A DNA stretch of 64,000 nt, taken from contig JBDHSO010000003.1 in the NCBI GenBank assembly GCA_039808125.1, positions 4,860-68,859 of the forward strand, in the 5' to 3' direction. Position 1 is the stretch's first letter. The number at the start of each line of letters is the position of its first letter. The translations under genes were made by a program, and so were the position numbers. Shown here piece after piece: positions 17,428-54,813 of this stretch. The notes beneath the pieces are model-generated. The model worked only from the letters and a program-made list of their open reading frames with translations. It searched no databases and was not told the DNA's origin. Source of the DNA: Rhodobacter sp. (GTDB taxonomy: Bacteria; Pseudomonadota; Alphaproteobacteria; Rhodobacterales; Rhodobacteraceae).

Positions 17428-17456
17428 TTGACGGGCTGCGTCAGGGGTGGCTAATT
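17428..17456 (+). promoter_or_regulatory. Putative sigma70 promoter of the riboswitch-nrdHIEF transcript
   Basis: TTGACG-N16/17-GCTAAT immediately before the riboswitch. Confidence 0.5.
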
Positions 17457-17459
17457 GGG

Positions 17460-17620
17460 CCGGTCATGGTGCCCGGGGCGACTCGGGTGAAGACGGGAAG
17501 TCCGGTGCAAATCCGGGGCTGCCCCCGCAGCTGTAAGCGGCAAGCGAGGCCGAACATGCCACCGGGCAACCGGGAAGGCCGGTCAAGCGAGGACCCGCAA
17601 GCCAGAAGACCTGCCATGAC
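17460..17620 (+). promoter_or_regulatory. Cobalamin (AdoCbl) riboswitch
   Basis: GGTGCCC...AAGACGGGAAGTCCGGTGCAAATCCGGGGCTGCCCCCGCAGCTGTAA...GCCACCGGG...CCGGGAAGG...GCCAGAAGACCTGCC, closed by a GTCAT/ATGAC stem. Confidence 0.95.
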
Positions 17621-17734
17621 GACGACAAAGAAACCGCGCGGCGGGCGCGGGGTGTCGGGGCCTCTGGCCGCTTTCGGGCGGCCTGTCCCGTGCCCGTTCG
17701 GCCGGCGCCAGAAACGAAAAGGGACTTGAGGCAA

Positions 17735-47472: not shown

Positions 47473-48417
47473 ATGAAAAAGATCCTTCTCGCGACCACCA
47501 TGATCGTTGCTGGCGCCGGCATGGCTGCCGCTGACGTGACGGTTTCGGGTCTGGGCCGCTTCGGTCTGGGCTACTACAGCAAGCCGGGCGTCGGCATGTC
47601 GAAAACCTACATCGAACACCGCCTGCAGTTCGACATCACCGGCACCAAGGAAACCGATGTCGGCGTGACCTTCGGTGGCAAGTTCCGCATGCGGAACAAC
47701 GATGGTGACAACGTCACCGCGGGCAACCAGGCGCTGCTGTTCGCCGAATACATGGGGCTGCGTGTTGAAGTCGGCAACGCGAACACCGCCATCGACTCGG
47801 CTGGCCTGATCTGGAATTCGGAAATCGGTCTGACCGCCTCGTCCTATGGCGACCCGCGCTCGGACTTCTACAGCTACAAGTCGCAGGGCAACGTGTCGGT
47901 GCCGTATTCGGGCTATGAAGGCGTCTTCGCCTCCTACTCGATGGGTGACTTCACGGGCCGCATCTCGTACATCCAGCCCAACCAGTATGCCAGCAACAAT
48001 GCGCCTGGCGTGGATGACGAACTCTCGGTCTCGGTCGACTATGCTTCGGGTCCGTTCGCGGTCTCGGCCTCGGTCGCTCAGAACGCTGCCGGCGTGAAAG
48101 ACGACGACATGTGGTTCCTCGGCGCGGCCTATACGTTCAACGACGCGGCCACCGTTGGCCTGAACTACATCGACGAAACCGGCGAGAAGGCTGACGCGAC
48201 CGGCGACCGCACCATCGTGCTCTACGGTTCGTATGTCTTCGGCGCGACCACGCTGGCTGGCTATGTCGCCAACAACGACTCGGACTGGAACTCGACCGAC
48301 ACCGCCTACGGTCTCGGCGCGTCCTACGACCTCGGTGGCGCGACGTTGACCGGCGCCGTGCACCGTTCGTACAACAAGACCACCTACGCCGACCTCGGTG
48401 TGAAGTTCTCGTTCTGA
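47473..48417 (+). CDS. Major outer membrane porin
   Basis: Signal peptide MKKILLATT, amphipathic beta strands, C-terminal GVKFSF and strongly biased codon use. Confidence 0.92.
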   Translation: MKKILLATTMIVAGAGMAAADVTVSGLGRFGLGYYSKPGVGMSKTYIEHRLQFDITGTKETDVGVTFGGKFRMRNNDGDNVTAGNQALLFAEYMGLRVEVGNANTAIDSAGLIWNSEIGLTASSYGDPRSDFYSYKSQGNVSVPYSGYEGVFASYSMGDFTGRISYIQPNQYASNNAPGVDDELSVSVDYASGPFAVSASVAQNAAGVKDDDMWFLGAAYTFNDAATVGLNYIDETGEKADATGDRTIVLYGSYVFGATTLAGYVANNDSDWNSTDTAYGLGASYDLGGATLTGAVHRSYNKTTYADLGVKFSF

Positions 48418-52748: not shown

Positions 52749-52841
52749 GCGGTTCTCCTGTCTCCTATCTAGTTGCGGGATGACAGGATTGAAACATATC
52801 CCGATCCTCCGACACGAGCGCGTGAGCCTTCCGTCACATCC

Positions 52842-52870
52842 CTTGCCGGATGCGGCACCGCGGCGCATCT
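52842..52870 (+). promoter_or_regulatory. Possible RpoH-type promoter of cenR
   Basis: CTTG-N18-CGCATCT. Confidence 0.35.
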
Positions 52871-52896
52871 GATCCACACCGAAAACGGAGGCCAAG

Positions 52897-53583
52897 ATGG
52901 CACAGCTTCGCAAGATTCTGCTTGTCGACGACGATGACGACCTGCGTGAGGCGCTCTCTGAGCAGCTGGTGATGACCGAGGATTTCGACGTGTTCGAGGC
53001 CAGGACCGGCGCCGAGGGCATGGAGAAGGCCCGGGCCGGGCTTTATGATCTGGTCATCCTGGACGTGGGCCTGCCCGATACCGACGGCCGGGAACTGTGC
53101 AAACGGATGCGCAAGGCCGGGGTGAAATGCCCGATCATGATGCTGACCGGCCACGATACCGACAGTGATACGATTCTGGGCCTCGATTCGGGCGCGAACG
53201 ACTATGTGACGAAGCCGTTCAAGTTTCCGGTCCTGCTGGCGCGGATTCGGGCGCAGCTTCGCACGCATGAGCAATCGGAAGATGCGGTCTTCCAGCTTGG
53301 CCCCTATTCCTTTCGCCCCGCACAGAAGATGCTGGTGGGCGAGAAGGACAAGAAGATCCGCCTGACCGAGAAGGAAACAAACATCCTGAAGTTCCTTTAC
53401 CGCGCGCAGCAAGGTGTCGTGGCGCGGGACGTGCTTCTGCACGAGGTCTGGGGGTACAACGCCGGCGTCACCACCCATACGCTGGAAACCCATATCTATC
53501 GCCTGCGCCAGAAGATCGAGCCCGACCCCTCGAACGCGCGCCTTCTGGTCACGGAAAGCGGCGGCTATTGCCTCGTCGCCTGA
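52897..53583 (+). CDS. cenR: OmpR-family cell envelope response regulator, CenR-like
   Basis: [28 protein letters not shown] and [16 protein letters not shown] in ribA/xth synteny. Confidence 0.8.
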
Positions 53584-53666
53584 GCATGTGGTCCGACGGT
53601 CGCATTGCTGCCCGATTCAGCCGCTATTAACTGCCCTGGGTGCAGAATGTTTCCATCGAATCCCCT

Positions 53667-53737
53667 TGCCGTGCCGGGGTCATGACACGGCATCCTCCCT
53701 GTTGGACCTGGCCGGGCTTCGTGCCCGGCATTTTTTT
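53667..53737 (+). ncRNA. SorX/SuhB-like 3'UTR sRNA core, copy 1 (5' end uncertain)
   Basis: TGCCGTG/CACGGCA hairpin, unpaired TCCTCCCTGTTGGAC, then GCCGGGC/GCCCGGC terminator with T7. Confidence 0.7.
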
Positions 53738-53877
53738 GCGCCGCGCGCCGGCATCGGCCAGCGCCCTTGCCGAAGGCGAGTAAACGGACAGGGCGCGCGT
53801 TCTGCGGTTGTGGTCAAAAAGTCACTGTCTGATGCGTCGATCAGATCCGGGCGCGGCTATGCTGCAAGAAGTCCGGA

Positions 53878-53947
53878 TATCGTGATATGTACGCACACCT
53901 CCCTGTTGGACTTTGGCCCGGTGCTTCGCAGTCCCGGGCCTTCTTTT
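53878..53947 (+). ncRNA. Second SorX/SuhB-like sRNA module, copy 2 (5' end uncertain)
   Basis: Identical 14-mer CCTCCCTGTTGGAC (53898-53911), then GGCCCGG/CCGGGCC stem and TTCTTTT. Confidence 0.6.
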
Positions 53948-54024
53948 GACCGGAGACAAGGCGCCGCCCTTGCCGCGCCGGGCGTGGCGCCCTAGTCTCG
54001 CGGCCCGCAGCAGAGGAGCACGCA

Positions 54025-54813
54025 ATGCCTTTCACCCTTGCCACCTGGAACATCAATTCGGTCCGGCTGCGTGAAGGATTGGTGCAACGCCTGCTGCGCG
54101 AAGAGGCACCGGACATCCTGTGCCTGCAAGAGATCAAGACACCGATCGACAAGTTCCCGCTCGAAGGTTTTGCCGAGTTGGGGTACCGCCATCTCGTGGC
54201 GCGCGGGCAGAAGGGCTACAACGGCGTGGCCATCCTGTCGAAGCTGCCGGTCGAGGACATGGGCGATCGCGACTATGCCGGTCTGGGCCATGCCCGCCAT
54301 GTCGTGGCGCGGCTGGAAAATGGTGTCACCATCCACAATTTCTATGTTCCGGCCGGCGGAGACATTCCCGACCGGACGCAGAACGAGAAATTCGGCCAGA
54401 AGCTCGATTTCCTGACCGAAATGCGCGACGCCTTTCTGGCCGACCGGCCGGAGCGCGCGATCCTGGTCGGCGATCTGAACATCGCCCCGCGCGAGGACGA
54501 TGTCTGGAACCACAAGGCGCTGTTGAAGATCGTTTCGCACACGCCGATCGAGGTGGAGCACCTTGGTGCCGCACAGGAGGCCGGGGCCTGGATCGACATC
54601 ACCCGCAAGGATCTGCCGCAGGGGCTGCTTTACAGCTGGTGGAGCTATCGCAGCCCGGACTGGGATGCGGCCGACAAGGGCCGCCGACTGGATCATGTCT
54701 GGGCGACGCCCGATATCGCCAATGCCGGTCATTCCAGCCGCATCCTGCGTCCGGTCCGGGGATGGGACCAGCCCTCGGACCACGTTCCGGTTTTCGCGAC
54801 CTTCGATCTTTGA
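54025..54813 (+). CDS. xth: Exodeoxyribonuclease III
   Basis: TWNINSVRLR, LCLQEIK, YNGVA, GDLNIAP, RRLDH and SDHVP. Confidence 0.95.
   Translation: MPFTLATWNINSVRLREGLVQRLLREEAPDILCLQEIKTPIDKFPLEGFAELGYRHLVARGQKGYNGVAILSKLPVEDMGDRDYAGLGHARHVVARLENGVTIHNFYVPAGGDIPDRTQNEKFGQKLDFLTEMRDAFLADRPERAILVGDLNIAPREDDVWNHKALLKIVSHTPIEVEHLGAAQEAGAWIDITRKDLPQGLLYSWWSYRSPDWDAADKGRRLDHVWATPDIANAGHSSRILRPVRGWDQPSDHVPVFATFDL

Follow-up and report, generated by a model that had tools for sequence, protein, structure and literature searches.

A probable third small RNA gene of the SorX/SorY group between cenR and xth in Rhodobacter sp.

Among the stress sRNAs of Rhodobacter, SorX and SorY are the reference pair, and the species in which they have been studied lacks the third gene considered here. 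In R. sphaeroides, SorX (RSs2461, Rfam RF02784) is released by RNase E cleavage of a longer transcript (PMC6238624), and its host gene, RSP_0847, has been recognized as CenR (PMC9275681). SorX and SorY (RSs1543, RF02651) lie about 1 Mb apart in that genome, at positions 2,598,224 and 1,632,642 (PMC6238624), so the tandem layout described below is not the textbook one. Overexpression of SorY lowers the SorX target RSP_2400 (PMC4615379), which provides a precedent for an overlapping target range between members of the group.

The window analyzed here is a 64-kb stretch of Rhodobacter sp. DNA in which the 14-mer CCTCCCTGTTGGAC, hereafter the seed, has two exact matches, at 53694-53707 and 53898-53911, both on the + strand and 204 nt apart. 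Both copies lie inside the 441-bp gap that runs from the cenR stop at 53583 to the xth start at 54025. The original prediction had placed an exact repeat of the seed in this gap and had assigned to each copy a terminator hairpin of its own and of distinct sequence. The repeat was found just as it had been described; folding and a terminator scan agree that a GC-rich hairpin and then a T run stand behind each seed copy, and the two hairpins are of different sequence. The repeat goes beyond chance, because the first 13 letters of the seed occur in 278 of the 301 genera sampled from the family, as a rule with one to three occurrences in each genome, whereas the reversed 13-mer, searched as a control, matches only a handful of genomes. 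The features of the locus, in order, are as follows.

52812..52826, + strand: candidate CenR autoregulation site of the TGA-N8-TGA type, ACACGAGCGCGTGAG, upstream of cenR
52897..53583, + strand: cenR orthologue, an OmpR-family response regulator of 228 aa (ORF; 83-94% identity to relatives)
53660..53736, + strand: copy 1, SorX (full-length match to Rfam RF02784, 76.7 bits against a gathering score of 46.6)
53667-53692, + strand: 5' hairpin of copy 1 (fold, terminator scan, as for the next two features)
53694-53707, + strand: seed of copy 1
53711-53729, + strand: terminator of copy 1, followed by a T run
53806..53825, + strand: conserved upstream block of the type GGTTGTGG-N-AAAAA-G-CA, about 70-90 nt before copy 2
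53829..53844, + strand: 16-bp palindrome CTGATGCGTCGATCAG, its centre about 60 nt 5' of the predicted copy 2 start
53883..53891, + strand: predicted extended -10 element of copy 2, TG-a-TATGTA, aligned with an invariant TG..TA (GGATTCCGTGGTATAcA block)
53897..53947, + strand: copy 2, predicted sRNA of about 50 nt (putative start at A 53897; seed 53898-53911)
53915-53921/53934-53940, + strand: terminator stem of copy 2 with an inner 3-bp helix, followed by TTCTTTT at 53941-53947 (fold)
53970..53998, + strand: possible own promoter of xth, TTGCCG-N17-TAGTCT, 3' of the copy 2 terminator (predicted from the letters)
54025..54813, + strand: xth, exodeoxyribonuclease III (NCBIfam TIGR00633, 158 bits against a cut-off of 99)

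Elsewhere in the window, a cobalamin riboswitch was identified at 17450-17632 (Rfam RF00174, 116.5 bits).

Because its Rfam score exceeds the threshold and it is positioned behind a cenR orthologue, copy 1 is, as judged from these two features, an ordinary SorX, the assignment that had originally been made for it. It starts 77 nt past the cenR stop on the same strand, in the 3' tail of the gene, and its terminator consists, in the terminator scan, of 7 GC pairs and then seven T. CenR proteins from 80 Rhodobacterales loci are 83-94% identical to the product of this cenR, and nearly all of these loci have a SorX-type unit just downstream; in NCBIfam, the product finds OmpR-family matches that are all below threshold. 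All 15 nt of the candidate autoregulation site are identical to the site given for the R. sphaeroides RSP_0847 promoter (PMC9275681), suggesting that CenR autoregulation may be conserved here. The number of units behind cenR varies among relatives: two full SorX-type units with 5' hairpins stand in tandem at L020:3188-3470 and L023:3188-3450, and L040:2147-3100 holds three seeds, the first SorX-like, the second SorX-like and located past an opposite-strand gene, and the third in a copy-2-type unit with an FNR-like box.

We think it fairly likely that the cenR-xth gap contains, in addition to SorX, a third paralogue of the SorX/SorY group, an anti-Shine-Dalgarno sRNA that would act in trans and would probably be transcribed from its own promoter. 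The predicted copy 2 RNA folds at -19.4 kcal/mol, and it ends in what has the make-up of an intrinsic terminator, with a GC-rich hairpin, a T run, and covariation across relatives. Copy 2 belongs to no curated family. It scores 25.7 bits against the SorX model RF02784 (threshold 46.6), with all seven pairs of the 5' helix as non-pairs, and 27.5 bits against the SorY model RF02651 (threshold 111). The original prediction had also drawn a link to the suhB/MmgR family; the resemblance in layout holds, but both copies score below the family threshold of 41 bits (RF00519; 21.1 bits for copy 1 and 15.2 bits for copy 2). Neither the window nor any of 41 relatives has a 5' hairpin ahead of the copy 2 seed, where the -10 element fills the space, and no RpoHI/RpoHII (sigma-32-type) promoter of the CTTG-N-CCCATNT type was found ahead of copy 2. 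The third gene is not described in Rfam 15 or in the searchable literature. A literature search with the seed letters returned nothing relevant, sequences printed in figures being outside the reach of such a search.

The locus had been read as a two-sRNA module that delivers one seed. This holds for the gap, where both seed copies lie, but the genome has three seed carriers, the third being a SorY-like gene on another contig (G000:C71:9210-9287; locus L004, ~1470-1590). Of all sites in the genome, this gene matches the SorY model best. It has a 5' hairpin, and its score of 61.6 bits falls short of the Rfam threshold, which is very high at 111; it is located behind a sigma-32-type promoter (CTTGCAG, 13 nt, CCCATAAAT). 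A weak match to the SorY model at C27:463-527 was considered as a fourth copy and rejected, as it is the terminator of a coding gene. SorY orthologues occur alongside copy 2, for example in Tabrizicola sp. M-4, Thioclava sp. FR2, R. kunshanensis and Pseudotabrizicola L79, and because the two coexist in the same genomes, copy 2 is a third paralogue rather than a displaced SorY. Cereibacter johrii and C. azotoformans carry SorX and SorY only.

We searched 24 same-genus genomes by BLAST with positions 53738-53950 as the query. A near-full match was obtained in one of them (G322, 83% over 188 nt), and the others match the seed-terminator part only; when the loci were read, a copy-2-type unit was present between cenR and xth in at least 14 of the 24. 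Loci collected by means of CenR placed such units behind SorX in Fuscovulum, Neotabrizicola, Cypionkella, Aliigemmobacter and several MAGs, and further Paracoccaceae with copy-2-type units, including those from two pattern scans, are Tabrizicola, Gemmobacter, Thioclava, Pseudorhodobacter and others. Cultured carriers of copy 2 include Fuscovulum blasticum DSM 2131, Tabrizicola oligotrophica KMS-5 (which has the FNR box discussed below), Gemmobacter strains and Aliigemmobacter aestuarii. The relatives were mostly found through seed searches, so that the invariance of the seed is partly built in. The census with a -10-plus-seed pattern has a high chance background, and we dropped from it 29 matches that had no terminator and came mostly from other phyla.

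Covariation of the terminator was assessed in an alignment of 41 copy-2-type RNAs. The terminator helix comprises 9 pairs and is 89.7% paired, and 6 of the 9 pairs have changed on both sides; the covariation score was reached by none of 500 shuffles, and when the partner was slid by one column as a control, pairing dropped to 57-59%. The copy 2 terminators have a common signature of their own, GGGC then TTTCTTTT, which suggests that copy 2 may be of single origin rather than the product of repeated duplication. Conservation and covariation in relatives were thus both found, and copy 2 is, on this comparative evidence, conserved and under selection. The wide distribution and the compensatory changes bear out the selection that had been proposed for it and argue that it is no decayed duplicate.

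All copy 2 genes share an invariant TG-n-TA motif (consensus GGATTCCGTGGTATAcA) that ends 6-7 nt 5' of the seed, and the A directly 5' of the seed is nearly invariant among them. In the window, the TG is at 53883-53884, the hexamer TATGTA at 53886-53891 and the A at 53897. If TG-n-TA is an extended -10 element, copy 2 would be a primary transcript of about 50 nt that opens with the seed, with A 53897 as its putative start. The window's -10 hexamer agrees with TATAAT at only 3 of 6 positions. A generic two-hexamer promoter scan found nothing at copy 2, a null result to be expected because the predicted promoter has no -35 element.

Farther upstream, the element best conserved among 15 aligned relatives is the block GGTTGTGG-N-AAAAGCCATGG. 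To our knowledge, it fits none of the CRP, sigma-54 and NifA consensus sequences. We rejected this block as a regulon-wide binding site, given its single occurrence in the window's genome, and as a CenR motif (TGA-N8-TGA), which it does not match. The palindrome CTGATGCGTCGATCAG is kept in the nearest relative, L178, with one central change. It was rejected as an FNR box (arm spacing of N6 versus N4) and as a repeat or mobile element, as only three CTGAT-N6-ATCAG sites occur in the genome; the window's other such site overlaps the stop codon of the coding frame 47473-48417 and looks like chance. In both the window and L178, about 20 nt are also inserted in the copy 2 promoter region, between the -10 element and the blocks farther upstream.

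In several relatives, TTGAT-N4-ATCAA stands 21-23 nt 5' of the -10 element. A scan of 185,579 species' genomes for an FNR box 20-45 nt ahead of the seed returned 85 loci, about six of which were estimated to arise by chance, and about as many of the loci as this estimate came from other phyla and had no terminator. Although distances of 20-45 nt were allowed, the box-to-seed gap is 33-39 nt in 76 of the 80 parsed matches, so that the box centre lies about 41-43 nt before the seed. A box centred near -41.5 is the class II geometry of FNR/CRP promoters. In approximately 30 of the scan loci, the unit is of the copy 2 type and a SorX seed lies 50-235 nt upstream of it; the remainder are SorX-position genes (Roseicyclus, Rhodophyticola and others) with the box directly before the 5' hairpin. 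In two sets that were not picked by the box, an FNR box with at most 2 mismatches was present in 6/15 and 14/49 units, always with a gap of 34-36. By this comparison the FNR box is real, yet no more than about a third of the copy 2 genes have it. Other copy 2 lineages have different upstream sequences in its place, and the class II site TTGAT-N4-ATCAA at -41.5 is absent from the window and from L178. In L303, L310, L341 and L347 (Pseudorhodobacter and relatives), a different conserved palindrome, TGTTTGCGCAAAC, stands in place of the FNR box about 42 nt before the copy 2 seed, suggesting that another regulator may have taken over in these loci.

A connection of FNR with this group of RNAs receives independent support from ChIP-seq in R. 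sphaeroides, which places FnrL at the 'putative promoter region' of RSs2461, that is, SorX (PMC4263372). Several loci have an FNR box 37-39 nt before the SorX seed itself (L092, L094, L100, L102, L103, L106-L108 and about 35 more); the genera with such a box before the cenR-proximal SorX seed include Roseicyclus, Rhodophyticola, Palleronia and others. In these loci the conserved GGGGT(C/T)ATGA of the hairpin sits where a -10 element would be expected, which suggests that SorX in these genera may be made as a short isoform that lacks the hairpin, from an internal FNR-driven promoter. In Cereibacter azotoformans and C. johrii (L255/L256), the FNR-like sequence TTGCGTGAGATCAA lies about 110-130 nt before the SorX seed, where it overlaps the cenR stop, and TG-n-TATAGA follows 21 nt past it. 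This site may account for the FnrL ChIP-seq peak at RSs2461, and the two elements suggest that 'pre-SorX', of 116 nt, may be a primary transcript.

Copy 2 could alternatively lack a promoter of its own and be reached by read-through of the SorX terminator, to be cut afterwards from the cenR-SorX transcript in the manner of SorX. We regard this as unlikely. Copy 2 does lie on the same strand, 160 nt past the SorX terminator, SorX itself is a known RNase E product of a longer transcript, shuffled sequences fold less well than the region 53805-53950 (z = -2.35), and the generic promoter scan is null at copy 2. Against this, the SorX terminator is strong, and the fixed TG-n-TA distance and the relatives' FNR boxes at -41.5 are features of a promoter and not of processing. 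As to copy 2 INDEPENDENCE from its neighbours, it is in 40 relatives always between cenR and xth and on their strand. In five of the relatives (L014, L135, L158, L163 and L165) it is nonetheless some 1.5 kb from cenR, with the promoter blocks kept. An opposite-strand, convergent MFS transporter gene separates SorX from copy 2 in L014 (Rhodobacter sp. Har01; L014:3339-4628, minus strand), and judging by the spacing, the same insertion would be present in the other four. Because the upstream blocks persist beyond the opposite-strand gene, copy 2 is independent of SorX read-through in these relatives. This separation, the fixed-distance core promoter and the terminator covariation all lend support to the separate expression that the original prediction had envisaged for copy 2.

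Four RNA-labelled runs covering 52800-54400 yielded contigs from relatives, mostly 90-95% alike. These metatranscriptome contigs cover SorX and parts of cenR and xth, and next to nothing of copy 2; several joints in them reflect relatives without copy 2. A search with the copy 2 of Fuscovulum blasticum listed no RNA run containing that copy.

It is quite improbable that copy 2 is instead a cis-acting leader of xth, with a promoter and terminator that tune xth transcription and a 14-mer that is left over from duplication. The genes are close enough for such an arrangement: xth follows on the same strand within only 46-118 nt in 30/38 relatives, so copy 2 could have a role in xth expression, and the interrupted T run (TTCTTTT) could permit read-through. 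In the other 8/38, however, another gene or 0.5-1.6 kb intervenes between copy 2 and xth, and copy 2 then remains beside SorX, while genomes without copy 2 have xth directly after SorX. Between the copy 2 terminator and xth there is moreover a separate promoter-like element, to which a CTAG(G/T)(G/C)TC element preceding xth in L015, L018 and L023 is similar, and the 14-mer is letter-for-letter that of the trans-acting SorX and SorY. That copy 2 is here a silent, decaying duplicate, left unexpressed by the loss of its activator site, is very improbable: the FNR box of a third of the relatives is missing, the insertion lies upstream of the -10 element, and the closest CenR relatives vary (the seed is changed in L012, and L013 has no copy 2 within 900 nt), but the unit still has an intact seed and -10 element, the A that precedes the seed, and a stable terminator, all of these elements are kept in L178 (83% over 188 nt), where the sole inner-stem difference, G-U to A-U, preserves pairing, and most copy 2 genes without the box are just as well kept.

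Under the preferred reading, in which SorX is accompanied by a third, probably independently transcribed paralogue, copy 1 would be the 3' tail of the cenR transcript and would end at its own strong terminator. Copy 2 would be transcribed from its own promoter as an RNA of about 50 nt, starting one base before CCUCCCUGUUGGAC and thus presenting the seed at a free 5' end. By analogy with the SorX target potA and the SorY target takP (PMC4615379), this seed may pair with GGGAGG-type ribosome-binding sites of the mRNAs that SorX and SorY control, mainly those of transporters, and block their translation. Since SorX, SorY and copy 2 share the seed, the difference among them should lie in when each is made, and copy 2 would answer a different signal than the other two. 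In about a third of the relatives, this signal would act through an FNR/FnrL-type box at -41.5, an indication of low oxygen; the box has been replaced in the window's lineage.

Potential targets were sought in a genome-wide screen for duplexes between the seed and ribosome-binding sites, a crude and noisy list that includes many spurious ORFs and has no background model. The top match was the antisense strand of the SorY-like gene. Start regions complementary to the seed include those of a PotA-like ABC ATPase (G000:C117:10530) and an L,D-transpeptidase, of two solute-binding proteins, and of three permeases, one PotB-like (C107:6254), one for branched-chain amino acids and one a TRAP small permease. 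Used for its annotated transporter genes only, the screen is a weak pointer, consistent with transporter targets and carrying no statistical weight.

More tentatively, we can picture a single, invariant anti-Shine-Dalgarno module of seed and terminator in Paracoccaceae that is driven by three inputs: SorY by a sigma-32-type stress promoter, SorX by co-transcription with the envelope regulator gene cenR, and copy 2 by an activator-dependent promoter that has been rewired by lineage. The copy 2 promoter would then be of FNR class II in many genera, with the box lost in the window. If this were true, the same transporter mRNAs would be shut down under oxidative stress, under envelope stress and in the lack of oxygen, and the tandem locus would be an instance of sRNA sub-functionalisation by promoter capture. 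If copy 2 is what we take it to be, the regulon has more inputs than assumed, with oxygen limitation as one of them in many relatives, and the gene offers a clean natural example of a duplicated sRNA whose targeting part stays frozen as its promoter evolves. The FNR link may also explain the published and unexplained FnrL peak at SorX in R. sphaeroides. Copy 2 would thus extend a known sRNA system and supply a testable hypothesis of oxygen input for its relatives; it is nothing categorically new.

Among known systems, the suhB/MmgR family (alpha-r8, RF00519) resembles the locus in having, by alignment to the model, a hairpin, a single-stranded CUCCCU and then a terminator, but only this short C-rich core is common to both, and the 14-mer is not. 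FnrS of E. coli and AniS of Neisseria are FNR-activated small RNAs. The box-bearing third of the copy 2 relatives has a predicted class II FNR promoter geometry, and these genes would, like FnrS and AniS, be induced without oxygen and repress mRNAs at their ribosome-binding sites; copy 2 is unrelated to those RNAs in sequence, and the window's copy has no box. With SorY of R. sphaeroides, copy 2 has in common the seed, a terminator and, as predicted for copy 2, independent transcription, whereas SorY has a 5' hairpin and an RpoHI/RpoHII promoter, neither of which copy 2 has, and lies about 1 Mb from SorX. Copy 1 matches SorX of Rhodobacter/Cereibacter sphaeroides in its position behind cenR, its 5' hairpin, its single-stranded CCUCCCUGUUGGAC and its terminator. 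Copy 2 is like SorX in the 14-nt seed, in the layout of seed and terminator and in the locus, and it differs in having no 5' hairpin, a terminator signature of its own and, apparently, its own promoter in place of processing from the cenR 3' UTR.
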